In this document: positions 6,108 to 63,247 of the stretch, piece after piece
How the letters are laid out: each line of letters begins with the position of its first letter
Numbering within the stretch: position 1 is the first letter of the stretch
Source: an uncultured bacterium
GTDB taxonomy: Bacteria > JAGRBM01 > JAHCIT01
Length of the DNA stretch: 64,000 bases
Direction of reading: 5' to 3'
Assembly (NCBI GenBank): GCA_964621525.1
Contig: CAZUMS010000011.1
Span: 587-64,586, forward strand
Program-made: the position numbers and the translations under genes
Notes under the pieces: model-generated
What the model was told of the DNA's origin: nothing
Seen by the model: the letters and a program-made list of their open reading frames with translations, nothing else
The model's database searches: none

Positions 6108-7297
6108 CGTTCGCCCTCCTGACGGAAGCTCACAGGCAGGCGGAATACGCCGGCCCGAAGCTCGAAGTTGCTCCGGCTGTTGTCGATGCTGAAAAAACGC
6201 CTGCCGGTCTCATAGTCGAAATATCCGACGACGAGGCCCTTGGGGATCAGGGCGATGTTCAGGCTGTATTCGCCGGTCGTGAGCGGGATCTCGGGGCAGT
6301 CGCCCCGCAGCAGGGTCCGGGTGCGGCCGCCATCCGGCGCATCGAATTCGTAGCCAAACTGAGAGACCAGCAGTCCGTCGCTACGGTAGACATAGAACGA
6401 GACAAGCATCGAGGGGAGCGGGACGTCACCTTCAAGAGATACTTCGAAGCCGAACCGCCCGCCGGTGGAGAAGCTGCGGGCTTCAAAGCCGTCAGGACCC
6501 AGAAGCCGGAATCCGGCGATCCTGACCGGCATCGCGGCGGAGGTGTGGTGGATCCATCCGGACGTCGCGCCGAAGGCGTGGGCAGGGAGTTCGCGGGAGT
6601 CTCCCGAAGAGCGCTTGTAGGCATCGAGGACGCCCGCACTCGGGCCGTCATCCCTGATTTTACCCCGGTCCAGCCAGATCGTCCGGCGGCAGAGCATCTC
6701 GATCCGGTAGAGGTCGTGGGAGGCGAAAATGACGGTGGTGCCCCGCTCGAGCAGCGAGATTACGCGCCGGTTGCATTTCACCTGGAACTCCTCGTCCCCT
6801 ACGAGCAGCAGTTCATCGAGAAGCAGCAGGTCGCCGACAAACGCCGTCGCAGCGGAGAAGCCGAGCCGGAGAATCATCCCCTGCGAGTAGGAGGCCAGAG
6901 GCTCAGCCAGTTTTCCTCCAAGTCCGCTGAACGCGGCCGCTTCCCCGTGGAGGCGGTCGAGATCGCCAGCGGGAGCCCCCTGGAGCTGGAGGGCAAGGCG
7001 GAGGTTCTCGGATCCGGTGAGGACGGGGGAGAACGGGGCCGTGAGTTCCAGAACCGACGTGACGCGCCCGTGTATCTGAAGGTTGCCGGAGTTCGGGTGC
7101 AGGATCCCGGCGGCGAGCCGGAGCAGGGTGGTTTTGCCTGCACCGTTGGGGCCCACGAGCCCGAGAGCTTCTCCCCCCGGCACCTCGAACGAAACGCCCG
7201 ACAGGGCCCAGGTTCCGCCGCCGGATTCGAACGGACGGGGCGGGCGTCCGCGGCCGAACCACTTTCCGAGCTGATCGGTCTTGAGCCGGGGCTTCAT
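6104..7297 (-). CDS. ABC transporter ATP-binding protein (Wzt-like) with C-terminal carbohydrate-binding-type domain
   Basis: Walker A GPNGAGKTT, YSQGMILRLGF signature, LLLDELLLVGD, SHD; C-terminal beta domain with LTTGEYSLNIA. Confidence 0.88.
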   Translation of the reverse strand: MKPRLKTDQLGKWFGRGRPPRPFESGGGTWALSGVSFEVPGGEALGLVGPNGAGKTTLLRLAAGILHPNSGNLQIHGRVTSVLELTAPFSPVLTGSENLRLALQLQGAPAGDLDRLHGEAAAFSGLGGKLAEPLASYSQGMILRLGFSAATAFVGDLLLLDELLLVGDEEFQVKCNRRVISLLERGTTVIFASHDLYRIEMLCRRTIWLDRGKIRDDGPSAGVLDAYKRSSGDSRELPAHAFGATSGWIHHTSAAMPVRIAGFRLLGPDGFEARSFSTGGRFGFEVSLEGDVPLPSMLVSFYVYRSDGLLVSQFGYEFDAPDGGRTRTLLRGDCPEIPLTTGEYSLNIALIPKGLVVGYFDYETGRRFFSIDNSRSNFELRAGVFRLPVSFRQEGER

Positions 7298-8226
7298 GTG
7301 TCTCCGGGACCGCCGCCGTCCCGTTTGTCAGCAGGCGGGGACCTGAATCCCTCCGGCAGAACCCAGCCGGGAATCCTGAGATCGCGCCGGCCTGCCTCGA
7401 CAGCAAGCCGGTGGAGCCACCGGTAGAGGGCGGACTGGCGCAGGTCGCGGAGATCGCTTTTCAGCCCTTCGATCTCCCGGGCGAGATGCGAGATGACGCC
7501 TTCGAAGCGTCCGGTACTTTCAGCTTCGAATCCGGACAGGGGGCCGAGGGCTGTCGCCGAGGCGATGGCCGGAAGCTTGCGCATGGACGCAGCGGCTGCC
7601 CAGCCCCGGTGTTCGAGTTCCGGAAGGCGGAGGGTGGTTTCCTCATGGCCGAACGGAAGCACGGTGGCGCCGGCATAGGTCACGAGCCGGAACAGCCGGA
7701 CATGGGGGAAATGCTGCCGCATGAGTCCCAGCAGGCGGCTATGGGTGAACCGGTTCCGGTGATAGGGGTTTGCCGCCGGGAGCAAACCGTCGTTCGGGAC
7801 GCTGACGATCACGAGACCGTCGGGTTTCACGACGCGGCGGCATTCTGCAACCGCTGCATCGGGCTGGTCCAGATGCTCGATCACCTCGAGAGCGGTGACG
7901 AGGTCGAACGACCGGTCGGCGTAAGGAAGGGTTTCGGCGGGTCCTTTCTGAAGATGCACGTTCGGATACCCGGCAAGTTGCTGGCGCACGGCATCGAGGG
8001 CCTCTTCCGAACCGTCGATACCGAACAGTTCCGCGGCGCCGTTCCGGGCCGCGAGTTCCAGCATGAGGCCTTCGCCGCAGCCCACATCAAGAATCCGCTT
8101 GCCGGCCGTCAGCTGGGCGATAAAACGGTACCTCGCCTCGTGTTCGAGGCTGAGCTGCGTCCGCCGGCCATAGGCTGCCGCAGACAGGCGCTCAGGCGCC
8201 GTATCGTCCGGAATTCCGTTTCCCAC
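7294..8226 (-). CDS. Class I SAM-dependent methyltransferase with C-terminal coiled coil (WbdD-like)
   Basis: EHEARY, ILDVGCGEG, FDLVTALEVIEHL; heptad-like HLAREIEGLKSDLRDLRQS. Confidence 0.8.
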   Translation of the reverse strand: MGNGIPDDTAPERLSAAAYGRRTQLSLEHEARYRFIAQLTAGKRILDVGCGEGLMLELAARNGAAELFGIDGSEEALDAVRQQLAGYPNVHLQKGPAETLPYADRSFDLVTALEVIEHLDQPDAAVAECRRVVKPDGLVIVSVPNDGLLPAANPYHRNRFTHSRLLGLMRQHFPHVRLFRLVTYAGATVLPFGHEETTLRLPELEHRGWAAAASMRKLPAIASATALGPLSGFEAESTGRFEGVISHLAREIEGLKSDLRDLRQSALYRWLHRLAVEAGRRDLRIPGWVLPEGFRSPPADKRDGGGPGDT

Positions 8227-44062: not shown

Positions 44063-45982
44063 ATGGCCCGCCGGTTCGGAACCCCGCTCGACTGGTCAAA
44101 CATGGACAAGTGCGCCGCAGGCGGAATGCTCGCCTTGCCTTTTCTTGTCCAGGAAACGGTGCTGAATTTCCTGTTCATCAGGCGCAACCCGGCAGTCTCA
44201 TATCTGGAACCCGGTTATCAGCATTTCTACTCCTGGTCCATACTGTGCATCACCGTCGTCTGGATGGGAATGATCGGGTACGCACTGTATCTGAGGGGAC
44301 GCGATCCTGATAACATCTTTGTCACCCGGCTGATGATATTCTACAGCAGCTGCTATCTGGTATTCGTCGTATACTCCTACGGTATCTTCACAACCCCGAT
44401 GTTCACCCTGATTCCATGCGTCGGAATTCTGGGAGTGCTCCTGTTTCCGAGGAAAATAAGTATCCAGGCGTATTATCTCGCCTTCGGCGCACTAGCAGTG
44501 CTTGGAATACTCGAGCAGTTGAGGGCGATTCCCTATGCTCCGCTGCTCCGCCGGCAGCCGTATTCCTTCCACCGGCTGGATTCGGCCTGGGTGCTTAATT
44601 CCGGAGCAATCACGTATGTTTTCTCGCTGGCCGTGATGGCGCTTTGTGGAGCCATGTTCGATCTCTGGCGGGACCGGGAATCCCGGCTGGCTGAATCGAC
44701 CCGGGAACTCGAGCGCTCCCGAGACATGCTGGAAACCCATGTCGCGGCGAGAACGGAGGAACTTGAGAAATCGAACCAGTACCTGCTTGAGGAGATCGTC
44801 CGCCGCCGGAAGGCGGAGGAGGCCAGACTCGCCATCGAGCGCAGGATGCTTGAGGCTCAGAAACTGGAAAGCCTGGGAGTGCTGGCTGGCGGAGTCGCCC
44901 ACGACTTCAACAACCTGATTTCCTCGATTCTGGGGAATGCCGAACTTGTGCAGGCGGATCTCCTTCCTGGCAGTGCGCAGCTGGAGAGCGTCCGCGCGAT
45001 CACCCAGGCCGCCCGTCGGGCGGGCGATCTCACCCGCCAGCTTCTTGCGTATGCAGGCAAGGCGCAATTCAGCATCGAACCCGTAAACCTGAACGAACTG
45101 GCGGAGGAAATGGTCCAGATCCTCCGGGTATCGATTCCGAAGGACATAAAGGTCGAGTTCCGTCTCGCACCGGACCTGCCGGCGGTCGAAGGTGACCCGA
45201 CGCAGCTCCGGCAGGTGGTGATGAATCTCATCACCAATGCGGCGGAAGCGATCGGGGAAAACGCAGGGACCATTACGATCAAGACGGACTTCATGAAGCT
45301 GGACGAACATGCCCTCGCCGACGGCTACCGGCCTTCGACGCGGCCGCCCGGCAATTACGTCAGTATCGAGATCCGGGACACGGGCTGCGGTATCGGCGCC
45401 GAAACCCTGGAGCGTATCTTCGACCCGTTCTTCACGACCAAGTTCACGGGACGGGGGCTTGGGCTTCCTGCCGTGCGCGGAATCGTGAACGGCCACCGGG
45501 GAGCGGTGAAGGTGACGAGCCGTCCCGGCGAAGGCTCTGCCTTCCGGGTTCTGTTCCCGGCCCTGCCGGGGGCAGCTCCGCGGAAATCGGAGAGCAGCGG
45601 CGACCCGCTCGCCTGGCGCGGCTCGGGCCGGATTCTCGTGGTGGACGACGAGGAACCCATGCGCGCCGTGATGCAGCGGATTCTCGTGCGGCTCGGCTTT
45701 GACGTGGACGTGGCGGCCAGCGGTGCCGAGGGACTCGCCCGGTTCCGGGATCAGGGCGGCGGATACCGGTGCGTGCTGATGGATCTCGTAATGCCGGGGA
45801 TGACCGGGCTGGAGCTGCTCCAAGAGGTCCGGGCCCTCTCGAGGGAAGTCCGGATCGTCCTGATGAGCGGGTACAGTGAGGACAGCATTGCCACGGGACG
45901 GGATCCCCTGACCGGTTTCCTGCAGAAACCGATATCCATCGAGGATCTTGCCCGCACCATGCGGGACATCTGCCGGGATTAG
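44063..45982 (+). CDS. Hybrid sensor histidine kinase/response regulator, multi-TM N-terminus (start may be upstream, ORF open from 43949)
   Basis: AGGVAHDFNNL, NLITNAAEA, FDPFFTTKFTGRGLGL, receiver VVDDEE/LMDLVMP/KP. Confidence 0.93.
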   Translation: MARRFGTPLDWSNMDKCAAGGMLALPFLVQETVLNFLFIRRNPAVSYLEPGYQHFYSWSILCITVVWMGMIGYALYLRGRDPDNIFVTRLMIFYSSCYLVFVVYSYGIFTTPMFTLIPCVGILGVLLFPRKISIQAYYLAFGALAVLGILEQLRAIPYAPLLRRQPYSFHRLDSAWVLNSGAITYVFSLAVMALCGAMFDLWRDRESRLAESTRELERSRDMLETHVAARTEELEKSNQYLLEEIVRRRKAEEARLAIERRMLEAQKLESLGVLAGGVAHDFNNLISSILGNAELVQADLLPGSAQLESVRAITQAARRAGDLTRQLLAYAGKAQFSIEPVNLNELAEEMVQILRVSIPKDIKVEFRLAPDLPAVEGDPTQLRQVVMNLITNAAEAIGENAGTITIKTDFMKLDEHALADGYRPSTRPPGNYVSIEIRDTGCGIGAETLERIFDPFFTTKFTGRGLGLPAVRGIVNGHRGAVKVTSRPGEGSAFRVLFPALPGAAPRKSESSGDPLAWRGSGRILVVDDEEPMRAVMQRILVRLGFDVDVAASGAEGLARFRDQGGGYRCVLMDLVMPGMTGLELLQEVRALSREVRIVLMSGYSEDSIATGRDPLTGFLQKPISIEDLARTMRDICRD

Positions 45983-46620
45983 CTGGCGGTTCCGTTCGAG
46001 CGGTTCCGGGCGCGCAGGTAGCCGATGATACCGGGCAGAACGGACAGGAAGATCACCACAAGAATGACTTTCTCGATGTGCTTGTCGATGTTCGGGACCA
46101 GCGTTCCGAGAAAGTAGCCCGTACAGGTCATCGACAGGATCCAGAAAGCGCCGCCAAAGACGTTAAATGCGGCGAAACGGCGGTACCCCATATCTGCAAT
46201 TCCGGCGGCGACCGGGATAAATGTCCGGAACAGCGGCATGAACCTGGCAATGACGATGGTCTTGCCGCCGTGCTCCTCGTAGTAGGCGTGAGCCGCTTTC
46301 AGGTGTTCGGGCCGGAACAGGAGCGACCGGGGGCGGCTGAACAGTAAGGGCCCGCTCTTCCTGCCGATCCAGTAGCTGACGGCGTCGCCGATGATGGCGG
46401 CCGGAACGAGCAGCAGGTTCAGCCAGAGCATCGAGAGATCTCCCTTGGCCGCATAGAGCCCGGCCGTAACGAGCAGCGAGTCTCCCGGCAGGAAGAACAC
46501 CATGGCTCCGGTTTCGAGAAAGATGATCAGGAAGAGACCCGGATAACCGCCCCAGCGGATGAGGTCGCCGGGCTCCCGGATGAAGTGGATGATCTGTTCG
46601 AGCATGCCCGGCAGTAGCAT
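45979..46620 (-). CDS. DedA/VTT-family membrane protein
   Basis: IIFLETG..FFLPGDSLL, AIIGD.VSY.IG, HGGKTIVIARFMPLFRTF. Confidence 0.93.
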   Translation of the reverse strand: MLLPGMLEQIIHFIREPGDLIRWGGYPGLFLIIFLETGAMVFFLPGDSLLVTAGLYAAKGDLSMLWLNLLLVPAAIIGDAVSYWIGRKSGPLLFSRPRSLLFRPEHLKAAHAYYEEHGGKTIVIARFMPLFRTFIPVAAGIADMGYRRFAAFNVFGGAFWILSMTCTGYFLGTLVPNIDKHIEKVILVVIFLSVLPGIIGYLRARNRSNGTAS

Positions 46621-46655: not shown

Positions 46656-46697
46656 AAAAAGGAACCCTTCTCTCCCCGGCGGGAGGGGAGAGAAGGG
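46656..46697 (-). terminator. Intrinsic terminator-like hairpin upstream of dedA
   Basis: 13-bp stem CCCTTCTCTCCCC/GGGGAGAGAAGGG, 7-nt loop, then TTCCTTTTT on the minus strand. Confidence 0.7.
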
Positions 46698-50906: not shown

Positions 50907-50950
50907 CGGCCACACCCCGCCGGACCAGACTCTCCCGGCGCTTCGCGCCA

Positions 50951-50976
50951 CCCTCCCTATTCAGGGAGGGTTTTTT
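50951..50976 (+). terminator. Intrinsic terminator-like hairpin
   Basis: CCCTCCCT-ATTC-AGGGAGGG followed by TTTTTT, downstream of the HEAT gene. Confidence 0.65.
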
Positions 50977-51086
50977 GCCGCTTGACCCTTCGGCAGAGCC
51001 TGTCCTGAGCAATTTCGAAAGGCTCAGGGTGAGCGCGGCATCCGGTTCCCCCTCCCTGTGGACAGGGAGGGGGCGAGGGGGAGAGT
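50951..51086. repeat. REP-like palindrome cluster, copy 1
   Basis: CCTCCCTAYTCAGGGAGGGTTTT and CCGGTTCCCCCTCCCTG-N-AGGGAGGGGGC..GGGGGAGAGT also occur at 57384-57471. Confidence 0.7.
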
Positions 51087-51097
51087 CTCCGCGGGCC

Positions 51098-51438: not shown

Positions 51439-52608
51439 TCAGGCCGAAGCTCCGGCCGTCTGCGCGCGGGGTTTCTCGCGGCGGTCCCTCAGCCGTTCCT
51501 CCACGGCGGACACCAGCTTCTGGTAATCCACCGCGGCGGGGCACCGGGGGTCGTATTCGAAAATCGTCTTCTTGTAGGACGGGGCTTCCTTCAGCTTCGA
51601 GTTCGCCCGGATGGGCTCGAACATCTGGTCCTTGAAGTAGTCCTTGAGGCTCGCCATCACGTCGTGGGTGATCCGCGCCCGCGGGTCGTAGAACGTCGGC
51701 AGCACGCCCAGGATCTCCAGCGGGTGGACGAGCTGCTCGCGCACGTAGCGCACCGTCTTTAAAATCTGCTTCACCCCGAACATGGCCAGGAAGTCGCACG
51801 ACACCGGGATCAGCACGTCGTTCGCGTAGGTGAGGGCGTTCTGGTTCACGATCGAGAGGCTCGGCGCGCAGTCCAGCACCACGTAGTCGTAGCCCGTGAG
51901 CGCCTCGAGCCGCTGCTTCAGGAGCCGCTCGCGCCGCTTCATGTTCACGAGCCGGATCTCCGCCGCCGCCACGGTCTCGTCGGAGGTGATGATGTCGAGG
52001 CCCGGCCGCACCGGCACGGCGACCTCCTGCGGCGCGGCCGAATCGATCAGGACGTGGTAGATCGACCGCTCCCCCCGCACGCCGAGCGAGGCGCCCACGT
52101 TCCCCTGCGAATCCATGTCGATGAGCAGCACGCGCTTCCCCGAGGCGGCGAGCCCCGCGGCGAGCGTCACGCTGGTCGTCGTCTTCCCGGTGCCCCCCTT
52201 CTGGTTCAGCACGGCGATCTTCTCGAGGTGGTGGTTCGCCGTCGCCGCCTTCACCAGCTTCGTGCGGCACTCGGGGCTGCACACGCGGCGGGTCTGGTTG
52301 CCGGCCACGAAGATCTGGCCGAGGTAGGCGACCTTGAACGGTTTTCCGCACTGGTCGCACTGGACCGGGGCGTCGGCCCCGCTGGAGACCACGCGGCCCG
52401 TCTCGACATCGACGAGCTTGGGCCCCGTGGACGATTCCTCGAGGAGGCAGTTCGAGCTGCAGTAGTAGCGGTCCCCGCCGGCCGTCTGGCGGCGCTGGAA
52501 GCTGAAAGTGAGCTCGAAATTCCGGCCGCAGACGCAGCAGGTCTTCTGTTCGGAGCGGGCTTCCTGGGGATTCAAAACGGGCCGCCTGACGTCGCCAGAG
52601 GCCCTCAC
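51439..52608 (-). CDS. ParA/Soj-family ATPase with two N-terminal Cys4 (TRASH/MYM-like) motifs
   Basis: NQKGGTGKTTT, IDMDSQGN, DCAPS, IPVSC; CxxC...YCSxxC and CxxC...VCSxxC. Confidence 0.9.
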   Translation of the reverse strand: MRASGDVRRPVLNPQEARSEQKTCCVCGRNFELTFSFQRRQTAGGDRYYCSSNCLLEESSTGPKLVDVETGRVVSSGADAPVQCDQCGKPFKVAYLGQIFVAGNQTRRVCSPECRTKLVKAATANHHLEKIAVLNQKGGTGKTTTSVTLAAGLAASGKRVLLIDMDSQGNVGASLGVRGERSIYHVLIDSAAPQEVAVPVRPGLDIITSDETVAAAEIRLVNMKRRERLLKQRLEALTGYDYVVLDCAPSLSIVNQNALTYANDVLIPVSCDFLAMFGVKQILKTVRYVREQLVHPLEILGVLPTFYDPRARITHDVMASLKDYFKDQMFEPIRANSKLKEAPSYKKTIFEYDPRCPAAVDYQKLVSAVEERLRDRREKPRAQTAGASA

Positions 52609-52741
52609 CTTGCTGAAACGTCACTAATATAAGGGGGTTATGGAACTCCTGTCAACCGGAGAATTTTACAAACGTGCCGGGCGGCCCTCCGGAAGGGTGC
52701 CGGACCGGCGCGCGGGGAGGCCCCCCCCCCCTCTGTTTTTT

Positions 52742-52881
52742 CCCGAACTCATCCCGGCGCTCCCCGCGCCACCCTTCTCTGCCAGCGCAGAGAAGGGACC
52801 GTTTCAGTTAACGGGGTTAGCTGGATTCCGGCCCTCTTTACGTCAGTAGAGAGGGCAGCCCCGGAGGGGCGGGTGAGTCCG
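52742..52881. ncRNA. Candidate structured RNA element, copy 1
   Basis: Multi-hairpin fold; 24 nt identical to copy 2; compensatory changes between copies. Confidence 0.45.
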
Positions 52882-52902
52882 TTCTGCGCCCGCCAGTGAG
52901 GT

Positions 52903-52927
52903 GTGCCGTTCCGTGCCGTTCCGTGCC
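52903..52927. repeat. Short tandem repeat (GTGCCGTTCC)x2.5
   Basis: GTGCCGTTCCGTGCCGTTCCGTGCC read directly from the sequence. Confidence 0.8.
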
Positions 52928-52984
52928 CAAGTGTGTTTATCCGTGCTGACCTGTGCAGGGTACCCCTCCCCCCCCCTGTTTTTT

Positions 52985-53112
52985 CCGGACCCATCCGGCC
53001 TCGCGGCCACCTTCCCTGCACGCAAGGAAGGCGCATCCCCAAGGCATGATGGCTGACGGGATGGCCCTCTTTGCTTGCAGAGAGGGTGCCCCGGAGGGGC
53101 GGGTGAGTCCGG
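52985..53112. ncRNA. Candidate structured RNA element, copy 2
   Basis: Same stem order as copy 1; also preceded by a C-run plus CTGTTTTTT. Confidence 0.45.
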
Positions 53113-53396
53113 TCCCGCTATCAAAACCCCAGGGGTTTCAGCCGGTTAACCCCGATAACGAGGAATAGGGAGGAAAATCCCCGCGCCGCCTGCCGTTAAG
53201 GTTTCCAGGTCCGGGCCGGGCACGGGGCAAACGGGCTCCCGGCGGAGCCCCAGCCACCGGGATTAGTATAGGTTATATGACGAGAAAGGCAAGGGGGAAT
53301 CGGCAAAGCGCAAAAGGGCATTGCCTCTAAGTTGAGTCATTAGGCCTGATTTTAGATTTTATTTTGGGAATCAATCCGCTAGCATCTTTAGGGCAT

Positions 53397-54956
53397 ATGG
53401 CAATTGCAAAACCAAAACCGGCGAACCGGCGGGTAATACCTGCAATCAAGGTTCATCAGTGGCTACCTGAATGGGACCGAATAAAATTTGATGCTGAAGG
53501 TTGGCAGCGCAAACCAGAAAAGCGTCATTTCTACATTTTCTCAATTAAGGCCGCTGAATTGAAAGCACTCACAGGTATCCAGCGTAGATCAGCAAACGCA
53601 GATCAACCACGAAAACGAGAATTAGGAATTCAGAGGCGACACGAAGAAGAAAGATCTCTGGCGATCAGAGATTTTGTTCGTTACGGCTATCCTGCATGTG
53701 ATCTCAATGTAGCACAGCGAAAAGAAGAGAAATATCGTCCACTTCTTCGGCCGGGGTGGCTGCCATCGGCAATAATTGTCAATATTCGACCAGAGAACGA
53801 CGAATTCGGACATATTTTTCAGGAAGATTTAGTTACGGTGATAGATCTACCAGATGGTGCCGCTTCTATCCAATTACCTTATGGTTTTAAAGATTCGCGA
53901 TGGAGGCCAGAATCAAGTGACCAATTTCCAATTCAGGTAATCGATGGACAACACAGGCTATGGGCTTTTAATGACGTAGGAATCGACGAAAAGGGACAAT
54001 TTGAAGTGCCAGTTGTGGCATTCGATAATCTGGATATTGGTTTCCAAGCGTACCTTTTCTGGTCAATTAATATTCGTCCTAAGAGGATTAAACCATCCTT
54101 AGCCTTCGATCTTTATCCATTGCTGCGATCCCAGGACTGGCTTGATGGTTTTTCTGGACATTCGATATACCGTCAGACTCGAGCGCAAGAAATTGTCGAA
54201 AATCTATGGATGTACCCAGAAAGTCCTTGGTATAAATCAATCGATATGCTCGGTGAAAAAACGGGGTATGTTACACAATCGGCATGGATTAATTCGTTAA
54301 CCTCATCATATATTAAAAGATGGAATGATAAAGTTGATGAAGACGAAACTAGGATTGGTGGACTCTTCGGTGCGCCAAATAAAAAAGACGCATTACTAAT
54401 AGGATGGAATAGAGCACAACAAGTAGCATTTCTTATTTACTTAGGAAATGAACTCAAATTTCGTGTAGCCAAAAATAGTGACTGGGCAGACAAAATAAGA
54501 GATTCGTCGGAAAAGAAAAAACCGGACCCGGCTTTCTACAGTCAAGACTCATTGCTGAATTCTGATCAAGGTGTTCGAGGTCTCTTGGCCGTCACCAACG
54601 ACATATTCTGCGCTCTCTCAAGAAAGTATAAATTAAAGGAATGGCAGAGTGCGAGTGATGATATTTCTGATATAACAGATGAAGCAATTAAGATTGAATT
54701 AGCCAGTATTGAAGATCAGGATTTCAAAAAGATAATTAAAAATATGGCGAATATACTATCGCAATTTGACTGGCGCACTTATTCTGCGGTCCCTGATGAT
54801 GACAAAGCCAAAGAGCGAAAGGCCGCATATCGTGGTGGTTCAGGATATAAAGAACTCAAAAGGCACTTATTAGAGCATTTATCTGGTGAGTCGTCTGATA
54901 TTGGGGAAATCGCCAGGGCACTACTTAGAAATCCAAGAAAAATCTCGCATGAGTAA
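53397..54956 (+). CDS. DGQHR-domain protein (DndB/ParB-Srx-like family)
   Basis: LGIQRRHEEER, PSAIIVN, QVIDGQHRLWAF, LFWSIN..PKRIKPSL; AT-rich codons. Confidence 0.88.
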   Translation: MAIAKPKPANRRVIPAIKVHQWLPEWDRIKFDAEGWQRKPEKRHFYIFSIKAAELKALTGIQRRSANADQPRKRELGIQRRHEEERSLAIRDFVRYGYPACDLNVAQRKEEKYRPLLRPGWLPSAIIVNIRPENDEFGHIFQEDLVTVIDLPDGAASIQLPYGFKDSRWRPESSDQFPIQVIDGQHRLWAFNDVGIDEKGQFEVPVVAFDNLDIGFQAYLFWSINIRPKRIKPSLAFDLYPLLRSQDWLDGFSGHSIYRQTRAQEIVENLWMYPESPWYKSIDMLGEKTGYVTQSAWINSLTSSYIKRWNDKVDEDETRIGGLFGAPNKKDALLIGWNRAQQVAFLIYLGNELKFRVAKNSDWADKIRDSSEKKKPDPAFYSQDSLLNSDQGVRGLLAVTNDIFCALSRKYKLKEWQSASDDISDITDEAIKIELASIEDQDFKKIIKNMANILSQFDWRTYSAVPDDDKAKERKAAYRGGSGYKELKRHLLEHLSGESSDIGEIARALLRNPRKISHE

Positions 54957-56250
54957 GAAGTTTTCCAAGGGTTCGCCGGACTTTGCAGCGGCAGTTAAAG
55001 CAGCCTCCAACGCTCGAATCGGTATCGCCCTTTCTGGACATATTGGCCCTCGATTACGAAAGGAGCAGAGATGGCTGGAGAAACTGAATATCTATTCTAC
55101 AGATCCGATCAAAGCTATAAAGTCTCATTCGATAAATCATCAACAACTTACTGAGTACGTTGCTGTAGCAGGAATATTACATACGTTTGACGGTTGGTCA
55201 TATCTGGGCCGGGCGTTGAATGCGCTAATGCTTTCGGACTTTTCTAGATCAATACATTTTTCGTATTATGCCGAACTTCGTGCAGCGCTTTCCATCTTGG
55301 CTCTCGAAGGAATTGGAGTTTTTAACGGCAGGAATATTTATATCGATGTGAAAGGGAGATGCCGCCTACATTCCTCACTCCCGACACATAAAGCTGTATG
55401 GAGTTATCTAGATAGTTGGGGGCGTTCGCCTAAGAGCGAAATCACCACGAAGCTTTTCAGATATCAGGGTGTCACATTCGAAGATTGGATAATCGCCTCA
55501 AAATTATCCACTGGGTCAATTGCACCACATGCATGGCTTTCATGCTGGGGTACAGATATTAAAAATTTTGCCAATGATCACTTAACCCGGAACAATGCGA
55601 GTTATCAACCGTCTCCATTGTCAGGAGACTATAAAGTTCCACTGCCTAAGATTTATGATCTAGTATGTAAGATATGGGAGTCTTTCGTCCCGACTATCGG
55701 TGGCTATGACGAAAATAGTAATGTCGATCATCTGATTGATATGTATGAATTGTATGAAAAAAATGCGGCAGTAACGAATATTGTTAACGGTCATATCGTT
55801 CCAGGGATGCAAGTGTTAGGTATTAATACGGGGATACAAAGACTTATTATAGATCGATACAAAAATAATAAGCGTGGGACACTTGGACTTATCCTTGATT
55901 CTGGAAATCCAAATAACAATGAACCGATTCCAGTTCAGATGATATCTAGAGCGACAATGCTACTTAAACTTGCAACATTGATGGCTAGACGCAGTATCGG
56001 CTCTTCTATAGATTTCCACAATGATGCGAAATTCTGGTGGATGACAGAGTGTGCCTATCGAGGGTTATGGAATGAAAAATCTCCACCGGCAGATATAAAA
56101 TTGTGTTGGGATGATATGAAACAGGTATTGGCGGACTTAGTCGCCGGGCAACAAAAGTCGTTAGATCGATATGATATTTCGAAAAATATAAGAGGAACTG
56201 AGAAGGTTGAGGCTTGTGAACTAATAGGGCTATACGGAATGGCAGCATGA
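54949..56250 (+). CDS. Large hypothetical protein with HEPN-like signature
   Basis: SYYAELRAALSILALEG...THKAVW...RNNASY parallels the HEPN pattern YxA..AL..G..H..V...R..xY; overlaps both neighbours. Confidence 0.75.
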   Translation: MSKKFSKGSPDFAAAVKAASNARIGIALSGHIGPRLRKEQRWLEKLNIYSTDPIKAIKSHSINHQQLTEYVAVAGILHTFDGWSYLGRALNALMLSDFSRSIHFSYYAELRAALSILALEGIGVFNGRNIYIDVKGRCRLHSSLPTHKAVWSYLDSWGRSPKSEITTKLFRYQGVTFEDWIIASKLSTGSIAPHAWLSCWGTDIKNFANDHLTRNNASYQPSPLSGDYKVPLPKIYDLVCKIWESFVPTIGGYDENSNVDHLIDMYELYEKNAAVTNIVNGHIVPGMQVLGINTGIQRLIIDRYKNNKRGTLGLILDSGNPNNNEPIPVQMISRATMLLKLATLMARRSIGSSIDFHNDAKFWWMTECAYRGLWNEKSPPADIKLCWDDMKQVLADLVAGQQKSLDRYDISKNIRGTEKVEACELIGLYGMAA

Positions 56251-57380
56251 AATACATGGGCTCCAAACGGGCGATGCTCCAGAACGGACTTGGCGAGGAG
56301 CTCGCCAGACGGGTGCCCGAGGCTGTCAGGTTCGTTGACCTGTTCACGGGTTCCGGTGCAGTGGCGTGGCATGTGGCGACACACTGGGGGATCCCTGTTC
56401 TTGCCGTCGATTTGCAGGCCTATGCAACGGCATTGGCGGGTGCTGTCGTTTGCCGGGACACGGTCGTCGATGGGGCACAACTCAAAAACGACTGGTTCGA
56501 CCGCGCGGAGGAGCTTCTCAGCGAAGCTTCCTGCTGGAATGACCTGACGGAGTTCCAGGACGATCTGGGCGAACGGATATCCAGACGCTTGGCTGACGAA
56601 GCCCGGCAGCTTTGTGAACTGCTCGGGCCAATCGGTCAGGCATACGGCGGTTATTATTACAGCCCGATGCAGGCTGCGGTCATCGAAGGGCTCAGGGCAA
56701 CGCTCCCCGAAACTCCGAATGAACGGCGGGTGGCTATTGCCGCCCTGATTCAGGCTGGCAGCCGGTGCGCGGCCTCTCCGGGCCATACGGCGCAGCCGTT
56801 CAAGCCGAACAGCACGGCGGGGAAATTCCTGCTGGAAGCGTGGCGTCGAGACGTCTGGGACGAGACTGAAAAGGCATTAAAGGCGATATCATCGCTCGCT
56901 GCGAAGGTTTCGGGAGACACGCATCAGGGCGATGCCGTGGCCCTGGTTCCCGACCTCATCCGGGAAGGGGATCTCGTTTTCCTCGATCCGCCCTATTCCG
57001 GCGTTCATTACAGCCGCTTCTATCATGTGCTGGAGACAATCGCGCGTGGTGAGATCGGCGAAGTTTCCGGCACAGGGCGCTATCCGGCACCGGAGGAACG
57101 GCCGCGTTCCGCCTTCAGCGTCATGACCGAATCGCGCGATGCCCTCGATACGCTCCTTCAGTCGATCAGCGCGGCAGGCGGAAGGGTTATTATGACTTTT
57201 CCCGCAGGCAAGGCTTCCAACGGATTGTCCGGCGTCAAAGTTAAAAATACTGCCGAAAAGTATTTCAAAATTCTCTCCCAGAAGATTTCCTCCAGGTTCA
57301 GCACCTTGGGCGGCAACCGTGAGAATCGAGATGCCCGGATTGACCGGGGAGAACTTATCCTGACGCTGCTTCCCAAATAG
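56247..57380 (+). CDS. N6-adenine DNA methyltransferase (D12/FokI-NlaIII-like class)
   Basis: KYMGSK, DLFTGSGAV (motif I), FLDPPY (motif IV), YSRFYHVLETI. Confidence 0.9.
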   Translation: MKYMGSKRAMLQNGLGEELARRVPEAVRFVDLFTGSGAVAWHVATHWGIPVLAVDLQAYATALAGAVVCRDTVVDGAQLKNDWFDRAEELLSEASCWNDLTEFQDDLGERISRRLADEARQLCELLGPIGQAYGGYYYSPMQAAVIEGLRATLPETPNERRVAIAALIQAGSRCAASPGHTAQPFKPNSTAGKFLLEAWRRDVWDETEKALKAISSLAAKVSGDTHQGDAVALVPDLIREGDLVFLDPPYSGVHYSRFYHVLETIARGEIGEVSGTGRYPAPEERPRSAFSVMTESRDALDTLLQSISAAGGRVIMTFPAGKASNGLSGVKVKNTAEKYFKILSQKISSRFSTLGGNRENRDARIDRGELILTLLPK

Positions 57381-57383
57381 GCT

Positions 57384-57471
57384 CCTCCCTACTCAGGGAG
57401 GGTTTTCCGGTCCCGTCATTCAGCTCCCGGTTCCCCCTCCCTGGGTATAGGGAGGGGGCAGGGGGGAGAGT
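57384..57471. repeat. REP-like palindrome cluster, copy 2 (first hairpin may terminate the methyltransferase operon)
   Basis: Matches both modules of 50951-51086 in the same orientation. Confidence 0.7.
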
Positions 57472-57533
57472 CCGTTCGCGTCCCATCCCCCCATTTCGCT
57501 CCGTCCGTTCGGCTGCGGTATACTCCCTCCCCG

Positions 57534-57911
57534 ATGGAAGCAGAGAAACAGCAGGGCCCCGGTGTTCCGCTGCCGCCGGACGCGATCGAGCGCCGGCTGG
57601 GGAGCCCCGGCGTGCTGGCCGGTATCCGGCGGCGGCTGGAGGCGGCGTTCGGCGCGCGCCTGAAGGACGTGATCCTCTACGGCTCCACGGTCCGGGGCGA
57701 CGACGAGCCGGACAGCGACATCGACCTGCTGGTGCTGGTTTCGGAACCCTACGACTGGGGCCGGGACTGGGACCTGGCCTACGATGCCCTTTACGACATT
57801 TACCTCATCGGCGGCCGCCCGCTGTCGATCAAGGTCAAGACGCTGGCGCAGTACGAGACCTCGCCGATGCCGTTCTACCGGAACGTCCACCGCGAGGGGC
57901 TTCACCTTTGA
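57534..57911 (+). CDS. Minimal nucleotidyltransferase (MNT, antitoxin-type)
   Basis: ILYGSTVRGDDEPDSDIDLLV (GS-x10-DxD). Confidence 0.9.
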   Translation: MEAEKQQGPGVPLPPDAIERRLGSPGVLAGIRRRLEAAFGARLKDVILYGSTVRGDDEPDSDIDLLVLVSEPYDWGRDWDLAYDALYDIYLIGGRPLSIKVKTLAQYETSPMPFYRNVHREGLHL

Positions 57912-58321
57912 CCGAGGCGGCGGGAATTCTCTGGAACAAGTCGGTCCGCAAGCTGCGGGCGGCGGAAACCCTTTTTGCGGAAGGGGATTACGGATCGGCG
58001 TCGGGCCTCGCCTATTTCGCTGCGTTCAATGCGGTGTCGGCGCTGTTCCTGCTGGATGGGCTTGAGTTCCGCAAGCATTCCCAGGTCCAGTCGGCCGTGT
58101 TCGTCGAACTGGCGAGAAAGGGCCGCTGGCCCGAAGAACTGGCACGGGGATTCCGCAAGCTCGGCGAACTCCGCGCGGAAGACGATTACGAAACCGCCCC
58201 GGAATGCACGGAGTCCACCGGCAAGGAGGCGCTCCGCATGGCGGAGGCGATCCTCCGGCAGGTGAGCCGGGAGCGTCCGGGCCTGTTCGTTCTCTGGGAC
58301 GAGGACGACGTGAGCCGATGA
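57908..58321 (+). CDS. HEPN-domain protein (MNT partner)
   Basis: LAYFAAFNAVSAL, KHSQV, LRAEDDY; TTG start overlaps the MNT stop. Confidence 0.88.
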   Translation: MTEAAGILWNKSVRKLRAAETLFAEGDYGSASGLAYFAAFNAVSALFLLDGLEFRKHSQVQSAVFVELARKGRWPEELARGFRKLGELRAEDDYETAPECTESTGKEALRMAEAILRQVSRERPGLFVLWDEDDVSR

Positions 58322-59736
58322 AACCATTCAACCGCACCAAGATCGTGGCGACGCTGGGCCCTTCCGCGAACAGCGTGGAACGGATCCGGGAGCTGATCCG
58401 CGCCGGGGCGGACGGCTTCCGGCTGAACTTCTCGCACGGGGACGGGGCGCAGCTGGAGCCGCTTGTCCAGGCGGTGCGCGAGGCGGTGAAGGCCGAGCGG
58501 GTGCACATCCCCGTGCTGGCCGACATCCAGGGGCCCAAGCTCCGGATCGGCCGGATGCCCAAGGAGGGCGTCACGCTGGTGGAGGGGGAGCCGCTCGTTC
58601 TCACCGAACGGCCGCTCCCGGAGGGCAGCGCCCATGAAATCCACTCCCCCTACGAATACCTGACGAAGGACATTAAGGCCGGGGCGAGGATCCTGCTCGC
58701 CGACGGGACTATCGAACTGAAAGCCGAAGCGGTCTCGGGCCAGGACATCCGGTGCCGCATCGTCACGGGCGGCCGCCTTTATTCCAACAAGGGGCTCAAC
58801 CTGCCGGGGACGAAGCTCTCGGTGGAGACGCTGACGGCAAAGGACCGGCTGGACCTCGAATACATCGCCCGGCGGGGCCTCGACATGGTGGCGATCTCGT
58901 TCGTCCGGTCGGCGGAGGATGTCGAGCTGGCGCGGCGGCTCCTTGGCGGCGGGCGGAAGATCCCCGTGATGGCGAAGCTGGAGCGGCCGGAGGCGCTGGA
59001 CCATCTGGACGACATTCTGGAGGCTTCCGACGGCGTGATGGTGGCGCGCGGCGATCTGGGCGTCGAACTCGACTTCGAACGGGTGCCGCTCCTCCAGAAA
59101 CGCATCCTGGAGCGGGCCGCCGTGCGCGGTAAGTGGGCCATCGTCGCCACGCAGATGCTGGGCTCCATGGTCCTGAACCGGCGGCCCACGCGGGCGGAGG
59201 TGTCCGACGTGGCGAACGCCGTGCTGGACGGCGCCGACGCGGTGATGCTCTCGGAGGAGACCGCCGCGGGGAACCACCCGGTCGAGGCGGTGGACGCCAT
59301 GGCGCGGATTTCCCGCGAGGCCGAGACGGCCGACCACACGGCCCCGGTGAAGTTCGACGCCGACATTGTGTCGTTCGCCGCCGGGGCGGCCGGGGCGGCG
59401 GTCTCCGCCGCCGAGCGGCTGAACGCGAAGGCCATCGTCGCGCTCGCGGGCTCGGGCCTCACGGCGCTGCTCGTTTCCAAGTGGCGGCCGCGCCTCCCGG
59501 TGCTCGCGCTGTCCGCCCACGAGCCCACGCTCCGCCGCCTCAACGTCCTGCGCGGCGTGATCCCGGTGCCGATCGGCGAGCGCGCCGACATGGAGCGGCA
59601 GCTCGAATCGGCCGACCGGTATCTCACCCGCGAGGGCTGGGCCCGGCCCGGCGACACGGTGGTGGTCGTCGCGGCGGTGCCGCTCGGCGAGGGCAAGGAA
59701 ACGAACTCGATCCGGTTCCACAAGGTGAGGGCGTGA
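58318..59736 (+). CDS. pyk: Pyruvate kinase
   Basis: RTKIVATLGP, RLNFSHG, DIQGPKLR, MAKLE, MVARGDLG, ATQML, TRAEVSDVANA. Confidence 0.97.
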   Translation: MKPFNRTKIVATLGPSANSVERIRELIRAGADGFRLNFSHGDGAQLEPLVQAVREAVKAERVHIPVLADIQGPKLRIGRMPKEGVTLVEGEPLVLTERPLPEGSAHEIHSPYEYLTKDIKAGARILLADGTIELKAEAVSGQDIRCRIVTGGRLYSNKGLNLPGTKLSVETLTAKDRLDLEYIARRGLDMVAISFVRSAEDVELARRLLGGGRKIPVMAKLERPEALDHLDDILEASDGVMVARGDLGVELDFERVPLLQKRILERAAVRGKWAIVATQMLGSMVLNRRPTRAEVSDVANAVLDGADAVMLSEETAAGNHPVEAVDAMARISREAETADHTAPVKFDADIVSFAAGAAGAAVSAAERLNAKAIVALAGSGLTALLVSKWRPRLPVLALSAHEPTLRRLNVLRGVIPVPIGERADMERQLESADRYLTREGWARPGDTVVVVAAVPLGEGKETNSIRFHKVRA

Positions 59737-59757
59737 ACTCCCGGCGCTTCGCCGCTT

Positions 59758-59850
59758 CCCTCACCCCCGTCCCCTCTCCCGTGAATCGGGAGAGGGGCGT
59801 TGTCCCTCCCGATTCACGGGAGGGACGGCGAGCGCAGCGGGCAGGGTGGG
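59758..59850. repeat. REP-like palindrome doublet
   Basis: CCCCTCTCCC-GTGAATC-GGGAGAGGGG and GTCCCTCCC-GATTCAC-GGGAGGGAC. Confidence 0.7.
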
Positions 59851-59869
59851 GCGCCGCCCAGGAGCCCGC

Positions 59870-60724
59870 GTGAACTCCCAGCTCTTCGCCCTCGGTTTCC
59901 GGCCCGACGATCCGCAGCAGCTCTACACGCTGCTGTCGGTGGCGGCCGAGCGCTCGCTCCCCGTGCTGGGGAGCCCGAAGGGCGCCGAGCACCGCCTCTA
60001 CGTGGACCCGAGCGGCGCGGCCCTCGCCGTGCACCGCTCCTCCGGGAAGATCGACGCCCTGACGCCGTGGCTGGAGAGCGACACGGTCTGGCCGCTGGAC
60101 GTGACCGGCTTTGTCCCCGACCCGGAGACGGTCCACTGGTCCGGCGCGAAGGGAACCGTGCTGGCCCCGGACGGGCCGGTGCCGGGCGTGACGGTTCACA
60201 TCAAGGATGTTTCCGCGTGGCGGCCGCTTCTCCAGAAGGGCGGCCGGTTCATGCTCCAGATGGCGGTGATCGGGGACGACGTGCAGGTGTTTTCCACGCC
60301 GGACGAACTCGGCGCCTCGCTCCGGGCGGCGTTCGGGAAAAACGAGCGGGGCGAGGAACTTGCGCTCCCCCGGAGCTTCATCCTGCCGACGGGCAGCGCC
60401 GCCGGCGGCGGGACGGGCCCGAAACCGGCGGGCGGCGGGAAACTCTCCGATATCGCCACGGCGCTCATCGCCGGCACCGTCACCGCCTTCGAGACGCGCG
60501 AGAACACGCTCTGCCGCAAACCGTTCCGGGTGGCCCGGATCGTGGCGGCCGGTCTCGACACGGAGGTCGCCTTCTGGAAGACCCGCGACGGCAGGGAGCC
60601 CCGGCCGGGGGAGGAGCTCCTCGCGCACTCGTGGCTCGCCGGGACGCCGCTCGGTGTCACGCCGCCGGAGGAGGCCGCGCCGGGCGGGCTCCTGTCGAAA
60701 CTTTTTTCGCTCCGCGCCCGGTGA
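59870..60724 (+). CDS. Hypothetical protein
   Basis: GTG start after CAGGAG; high GC3 coding pattern; no motif recognised. Confidence 0.7.
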   Translation: MNSQLFALGFRPDDPQQLYTLLSVAAERSLPVLGSPKGAEHRLYVDPSGAALAVHRSSGKIDALTPWLESDTVWPLDVTGFVPDPETVHWSGAKGTVLAPDGPVPGVTVHIKDVSAWRPLLQKGGRFMLQMAVIGDDVQVFSTPDELGASLRAAFGKNERGEELALPRSFILPTGSAAGGGTGPKPAGGGKLSDIATALIAGTVTAFETRENTLCRKPFRVARIVAAGLDTEVAFWKTRDGREPRPGEELLAHSWLAGTPLGVTPPEEAAPGGLLSKLFSLRAR

Positions 60725-63103: not shown

Positions 63104-63247
63104 GGGCGCTTGGCCCGGCCCTTCGCAACGGCCGGATCCTGCACGACAGCGAGCCGACGAACCCCGCCAGGTCCGGAAGGAAGCAACGGTACTCGATACT
63201 CCTGTGTTTGCAGCGGTCCGGCTTTTGGGGAGGGCCGAGGCGGGCAC
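63104..63247 (+). ncRNA. ffs: Signal recognition particle RNA
   Basis: Helix 8 core CCAGGTCCGGAAGGAAGCAACGG inside a long hairpin (GGCCGGATCCTGCA/TGCAGCGGTCCGGCT); conserved position upstream of dnaX. Ends approximate. Confidence 0.9.

Follow-up and report, generated by a model that had tools for sequence, protein, structure and literature searches.

Nested-palindrome repeats beside a ParA gene are probably members of a dispersed, trans-mobilised family in an uncultured Myxococcota-related lineage

The stretch of DNA analysed here, hereafter the window, spans 64 kb and contains two hairpin-rich units in a single intergenic region. To their left lies a gene for a ParA-type ATPase (51439-52608, − strand; AAA_31, 1.5e-50), whose promoter-like sequence TTGACA-18-TATATT (52626-52655, −) matches the consensus at 11 of 12 positions and lies outside the elements. 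To their right is an island of 40-50% GC in surroundings of 60-72% GC (53300-57380). It encodes a weakly DndB/DpdB-like protein, a 433-454-aa protein that matched no family and a D12-class adenine methyltransferase. The island is followed by a nucleotidyltransferase/HEPN gene pair (57534-58321) and then by pyruvate kinase. The ParA protein shares 85-86% identity with its counterparts in two metagenome-assembled genomes (MAGs) and about 50% with Myxococcota proteins, which identifies the host as an uncultured Myxococcota-related bacterium. The closest homologues of the DndB-like protein are found in Chloroflexota and Stutzerimonas. Upstream of ParA, sequence conservation with two relatives, L029 and L030, stops at about 52655-52663, just beyond the promoter. 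In L030, which belongs to MAG co199_84, ParA is directly followed by a small ORF and pyruvate kinase, and the window segment of about 52665-58318, comprising both units, the island and the nucleotidyltransferase/HEPN pair, has no counterpart.

Both hairpin-rich units are real, and every stem listed in a preliminary description of this DNA was found in the sequence where that description had placed it. Unit 1 (52742-52881, +) and unit 2 (52985-53112, +) have their stems in one common order, which begins with the closing stem and a short GC hairpin, continues with two polypyrimidine/polypurine hairpins separated by a variable centre, and finishes with a GCCCC-GGA-GGGGC hairpin. Unit 1, which we assigned to subfamily 1b of the type-1 elements, has closing arms, a GGCGC hairpin, a CCCTTCTCTGC hairpin, the variable centre, a GCCCTCTTTAC hairpin and the GGA-loop hairpin; unit 2 belongs to subfamily 1a. 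The 24-mer GCCCCGGAGGGGCGGGTGAGTCCG occurs exactly twice in the 64 kb, at 52858-52881 and 53088-53111, as previously noted, and the chance expectation for such a repeat was zero (100 shuffles).

The sequences around the units recur as well. A C-run plus CTGTTTTTTCC stands directly 5' of each unit, in agreement with the preliminary description. The 5' flank module of unit 1 (52712-52745, +) consists of a weak G/C hairpin, a C-run and CTGTTTTTT, and is 80% identical to 52955-52989; the flank module of unit 2 (52955-52984, +) likewise contains a C-run and CTGTTTTTT. Similar C-run/T-rich flanks precede other copies, as seen from loose contig ends at 52742 in the source metagenome. The spacer between the units (52885-52954, +) contains GTGCCGTTCC twice (52903-52922) and a CCGTG-rich tail. 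Similar CGTG-rich tails stand behind other copies, both at loose contig ends at 52884 in the source metagenome and in the flank of L012, and because of this recurrence the repeated unit may extend past the hairpin core. A spacer variant found in runs X1 and X2 lacks 78 nt (52885-52962), joining 52884 to 52963. Inspection of the flanks of units 1 and 2 revealed no evident direct repeats.

Both units fold far more stably than dinucleotide shuffles. Unit 1 reaches −84.2 kcal/mol (z = −7.39 on the + strand, −5.93 on the − strand) and unit 2 −84.7 kcal/mol (z = −5.90 on +, −7.28 on −). The multi-hairpin fold that had been proposed for both units, a cloverleaf, is indeed the minimum-energy form of unit 1, but that of unit 2 is a single long hairpin, because its second and fourth hairpins are near-copies. 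This duality is explained by the architecture of the elements, as each unit contains one two-hairpin module of about 45 nt twice, in inverted orientation. Within the module, an ACYCAYCC arm is followed by a short GC hairpin and then by a polypyrimidine/polypurine hairpin. A structure-aware scan for this arm followed by a hairpin of at least 4 bp and another of at least 7 bp gave five matches in the window, starting at 52747 (+), 52878 (−), 52989 (+), 53108 (−) and 50929 (+). Of 30 Markov shuffles, 29 gave no match and one gave a single match. The first four matches are the half-modules of the two units: left 52747-52798 (+) and inverted right 52831-52878 (−) in unit 1, left 52989-53032 (+) and inverted right 53064-53108 (−) in unit 2.

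Facing module pairs of 98-210 nt were found in the window, in MAG co199_84 and in the metagenome Ga0268299, with spacers between the modules that vary from 7 to 110 nt. The elements measure 101-205 nt, or 100-210 nt in round figures, and have no coding capacity. They end in ACYCAYCC and GGRTGAGT, and their closing arms of 12-15 bp include AGAGACTCATCC with GGGTGAGTCTCT and CCGGACCCATCC with GGGTGAGTCCGG. Some copies contain extra inserted modules, for example CCCTTCGGCAGGCTCAGGGC. Elsewhere in the window, an isolated perfect 13-bp polypyrimidine/polypurine hairpin, CCCTTCTCTCCCC-GGCGGGA-GGGGAGAGAAGGG (46665-46697), lies just past the 5' end of a VTT-domain gene (45979-46620, −), with a stem similar in style to those of the elements.

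The two units had been read as a duplicated pair. Their mutual similarity is confined to the last 50 nt or so, whereas the closest relative of unit 1, a copy in another locus (L006, 1683-1807), matches it at 75.7% identity across 140 nt that include the centre. For unit 2, copies in L017, L020 and L008 show 82-84% identity over about 120 nt. Since unit 1 is nearer to the L006 copy than to unit 2, the units are separate members of a family that lie side by side and did not arise by local duplication.

This family is dispersed and present in multiple copies. In four bioreactor metagenome runs containing the window, the flanks had contig word depths of 6-19 and the element segments depths of 60-280, roughly 5-30 times the flank depth at the level of the community. 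The copy number derived from these contig depths is about 10-30 genome equivalents, measured in a community rather than in one genome. Per run, about 30 contig pieces leave the element into differing sequences. All three Logan contigs with the DndB-like gene begin inside unit 2, and the repeats account for the breaks at this place in short-read assemblies of the lineage. MAG co199_84 carries the exact 24-mer on two different contigs and, when scans for the 24-mer and for the 5'-module pattern are combined, at least seven copies on four contigs. A slightly degenerate 3' pattern matched 23 metagenome loci, of which 12 proved to be true elements; inspection showed about 11 to be chance matches within genes of unrelated taxa, and these were set aside. 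Metagenome Ga0268299 holds about 20 copies on 11 contigs, often in arrays, and L010 is a twelfth locus with one copy.

The genes beside the copies are unrelated to one another and include a PDZ-type protease, a thioredoxin-reductase-like protein, APS kinase and pyruvate kinase. Most copies are intergenic and one lies in frame within an ORF: in L001, a 355-aa ORF (6799-7866) runs through a 205-nt type-1 element (7447-7651), giving peptides such as PFDRLRANG. The ORF may have been mis-called; otherwise the case is similar to Rickettsia palindromic elements, which insert in frame. We also observed a non-coding sequence of about 350 nt adjoining type-1 elements, 91-96% identical among at least six Ga0268299 contigs (L017 1860-2211, L016 4415-4762, L018 1367-1733, L020 233-593, L028 684-1051 and L008 4098-4263). 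Its opposite strand contains TTGATA-16-TATACT, the L020 copy shows a whole-stem swap from GGCTGCTGTCGAGACAGCC to GGAAGGGTGTGACCCCTTCC, and searches of this sequence against Rfam gave no match. Possible identities are a structured RNA in several copies and a larger repeat.

Sister families of the same design occur in the window. A type-2 element (50928-51087, +; GACTCTCCC ... GGGGGAGAGTC) lies between convergent genes, at a position that an ordinary terminator-like hairpin (AAAAGGGCGGGA..TCCCGCCCTTTT) occupies in L029 and L030. A 5'-truncated type-2 element (57381-57472, +) begins one base past the stop codon of the methyltransferase gene and marks where the low-GC island ends on the right, which looks as though the island had been inserted within an element or next to one. 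A type-3 element with two hairpins (59754-59867, +) is inserted where pyruvate kinase stops and the next gene starts. It is bracketed by 23-nt direct repeats (59731-59753 and 59868-59890, 21 of 23 positions identical), which represent the duplicated stop/start overlap of these two genes. The same junction in L030 is empty: the target is present once, and the stop and start codons overlap. In L023 the junction holds the type-3 element and, behind the stop codon of pyruvate kinase, a type-1 element that the window lacks. This type-1 element is flanked by CCGGCGTGA and CCCGCGTGA, the only type-1 site where we saw a target duplication (about 6-9 bp). Filled and empty sites with direct repeats are as expected of transposition.

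We compared 17 copies of the family to assess how their hairpins are conserved. In total, 93.6% of the cells pair, against 41-57% in slid controls. The compensatory changes reported for the two units, including an A-T to G-C swap, are real: across the 17 copies, both-sided changes occur in nine pairs (20 cells), and none of 500 shuffles reached the observed values. This indicates that the hairpins are maintained. Leaving aside one T.G pair fixed in all copies, the mismatched cells comprise 14 G.T and 18 A.C, an absence of asymmetry that gives no sign of selection on the RNA of either strand. Sixteen of 20 copies fold somewhat better as the + strand, largely through the fixed T.G pair. The strand symmetry would fit palindromes maintained at the DNA level and is also compatible with roles as RNA. 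The arms of quasipalindromes can be co-corrected by template switching, an established mutational mechanism.

Searches for known RNA families gave no match at the units. The sole Rfam match in the window at gathering score is a bacterial small SRP RNA (63130-63226, 58.5 bits, E-value of 2.8e-10). Within 52300-53500, a search to E-values of 10 returned only chance-level matches (E ≥ 0.15), which were microRNA-type models and a weak anti-hemB-like match outside the units; related loci searched at E ≤ 0.1 or E ≤ 1 matched no family, and a tRNA/tmRNA scan found none. The anti-hemB-like match (53171-53295, −; E-value of 0.15, far under the gathering score) ends in GCGCGGGGATTTTCC, and a weak promoter-like site, TTGCCT-16-TATACT (53292-53265, −), is aimed toward the units. 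A candidate small transcript at 53171-53295 (−) may point at unit 2. Other known classes of structured elements were also considered. RNAs of the CsrB/RsmZ type have many hairpins with conserved GGA in the loops. Each unit has one GGA loop, and other copies have GAA, GGCA or GTCA in its place, so that a CsrA decoy was rejected. A retron msr/msd occupies a single locus with an adjacent reverse transcriptase; here the element is dispersed and the flanking genes are ParA-like and DndB-like. Integron attC sites were rejected because the element ends are ACYCAYCC / GGRTGAGT and not the R''/R' form RYYYAAC ... GTTRRRY.

We next looked for the module beyond the lineage of the window. The 5' module pattern ACTCATCCGGCC-N3-4-GGCCACC matched 70 loci in a genome collection, about 25 of which turned out on inspection to be fortuitous hits in coding regions of unrelated taxa and were set aside. 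At least 37 matches outside the lineage continue with CTTCTCCC...GGGAGAAGG and thus carry the same module. It is nearly identical in sequence over about 45 nt, consisting of [CC]ACTCATCC, GGCC-loop-GGCC, A and CCTTCTCCC...GGGAGAAGG, and the apical part of the stem varies with compensation. Carriers belong to at least six phyla, with representatives in Planctomycetota (including Kuenenia), Verrucomicrobiota, Alpha- and Gammaproteobacteria, Acidobacteriota, Chloroflexota and 'delta' lineages, and include the cultured Ensifer and Methylobrevis. Examples among the loci L108-L175 are L112 1489-1600, L128 2341-2470, L149 2751-2660, L120 4239-4286 and L143 1757-1805. The strict module scan found single copies only outside the window lineage; read less strictly, a few loci, L112, L128, L149 and L173 among them, seem to have an inverted partner as well. 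The module is almost absent from viral contigs and matches no Rfam model. A literature search with its core sequence as a word returned primer coincidences only and no description of the module. Considering that the module is not specific to one lineage, it could be recognised by a widespread, sequence-specific partner, with the window elements as a doubled form of its substrate, a tentative idea that we think improbable as it stands.

Several readings compete to explain the two units. Elements of the REP/BIME, ERIC and Correia types are reported to act within mRNAs as stabilisers, terminators, processing sites or insulators, and the units might similarly be an exapted cis-acting RNA structure of neighbouring mRNAs, serving as a 3'-end stabiliser, terminator, processing site or insulator. 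The folds are very stable, copies in L002, L017c, L023 and L006 start 3-20 nt past a stop codon in gene sense, and the type-2 element of the window replaces a terminator-like hairpin of its relatives. Contigs of a freshwater metatranscriptome pile up on the L143 module (depth 35-77, against 0-3.5 in the flanks), which is weak evidence that some module copies are transcribed, although it concerns another organism, consists of contigs only and may reflect DNA carry-over. The units themselves lie between divergent genes and upstream of the ParA promoter, so that no known transcript covers them. Moreover, no U-tract follows the closing stem, and neither strand shows an excess of G.U over A.C. Overall, we consider such a role for the units unlikely.

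Far less probable is the lead reading of the preliminary description, a structured ncRNA belonging to this locus, be it an sRNA, a protein-sequestering RNA or an RNA partner of the DndB-like/methyltransferase island. The units do adjoin the 5' side of the island, one of their hairpins carries the GGA loop known from CsrA/RsmA decoys, and the weak − strand promoter-like site faces them. Yet the family is scattered beside unrelated genes, the GGA loop is not conserved and Rfam holds no match. The sequences upstream of four DndB-like homologues (43-46% identity; from Dehalococcoidia, Stutzerimonas, Chloroflexota and Caldilineaceae) contain no element-related sequence or motif, and we therefore rejected an RNA component of the neighbouring defence operon. 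The elements could instead be recombination or attachment scars, either a target or a by-product of the arrival of the low-GC island. They do occur at both of its edges, the two units at the left and the truncated type-2 element at the methyltransferase stop on the right, and the entire segment 52665-58318 is missing from L030. However, the elements at the two edges are of different families, and the island is not bracketed by direct repeats. It yielded no integrase or recombinase, and the same families occupy many sites that have no island. We regard this as very unlikely. The many dispersed, REP/MITE-like copies, which the preliminary description had itself named as evidence against an ncRNA, favour the last alternative on its list, a non-autonomous repeat.

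The two units are thus probably independent members of a dispersed, non-coding family of nested-palindrome repeats of REPIN/BIME/MITE-like character, mobilised in trans and situated in a variable intergenic hotspot. The best explanation of the sequence comparisons is a new family of a known type, combining a REPIN/BIME-like architecture with MITE-like insertion behaviour and carried by an uncultured Myxococcota-related lineage and its relatives. We infer that the elements spread as DNA, mobilised by an enzyme encoded outside the element. REPINs are mobilised by a hairpin-recognising HUH/Y1 transposase; RAYT is such a Y1 HUH transposase, with a gene flanked by REP repeats. Candidate mobilisers here would be a hairpin-recognising HUH/Y1 transposase or the transposase of an insertion sequence with matching ends. 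The hairpins would be retained through recognition by this enzyme, through arm-to-arm template-switch correction of quasipalindromes, or both. The site between the ParA promoter and the DndB-like island would be a permissive and variable intergenic hotspot with no role for either neighbour, and any local effects, such as transcript ends, insulation or recombination, would be secondary.

Comparison with known repeat systems shows both likenesses and differences. Like the REPINs and BIMEs of Proteobacteria, the elements are mostly extragenic and multi-copy, with two inverted short palindromic units that fold into a larger hairpin, mosaic units, arrays and no coding capacity. The doublet organisation of REPINs is matched by the facing module pairs of 98-210 nt, among whose minimum-energy folds are long hairpins. 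Between the tail G[A/T]AGGCCGGATGAG and the enterobacterial REP head GTAGGCCGGATAAG (PMC2817692) there is a likeness, though only a partial one. A REP is a single hairpin of 20-35 nt rather than a two-hairpin module of about 45 nt, and has a conserved 5' GT[A/G]G head where the module has ACYCAYCC; the absence of this GTAG hallmark counts against our preferred reading. So does the copy number, as REPs occur in hundreds of copies and this family apparently in tens (about 10-30, from community depth), which is low for classical REPs. A tblastn search with E. coli RayT over 1.38 Mb of loci, the window included, found no credible RAYT gene, with one weak match within an unrelated ORF in L163 (E-value of 0.29). 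A scan of annotated window proteins identified no transposase. A further difference from REPINs is that at least one insertion here is flanked by direct repeats.

Structured MITEs, such as Correia/NEMIS, ERIC/IRU, RUP and the Rickettsia palindromic elements, share with this family terminal inverted repeats, stable hairpins, presence or absence at orthologous sites and flanking direct repeats. The elements are small, contain no ORF and differ in occupancy at the 3' junction of pyruvate kinase among the window, L023 and L030; the in-frame copy is a likeness to the Rickettsia elements in particular. Unlike in MITEs, target duplication is inconsistent, being evident at a single type-1 site and not at the window units, a further point against the preferred reading, and the interior consists of swappable palindromic modules. 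BOX elements of Streptococcus pneumoniae are similarly modular, in the style of boxA-boxB-boxC, with varying module number and order and a stable predicted structure, but they have other modules, no sequence relation and a host of another phylum. For RIME and other intergenic mosaic elements, our literature search yielded no sequence for comparison.

For annotation, recognising this family removes a tempting false ncRNA call. For the biology of this uncultured Myxococcota-related lineage, nested-palindrome repeats mark variable intergenic hotspots, where they can separate a stop codon from an overlapping start codon and duplicate the junction in doing so; they can also lie in frame within genes. 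A wider question is raised by the near-identity of one 45-nt module across at least six phyla. If a widespread partner does recognise it, this would be an undescribed factor and could be a mobilising enzyme of wide distribution, or else a protein or an RNA-processing activity conserved among the hosts.
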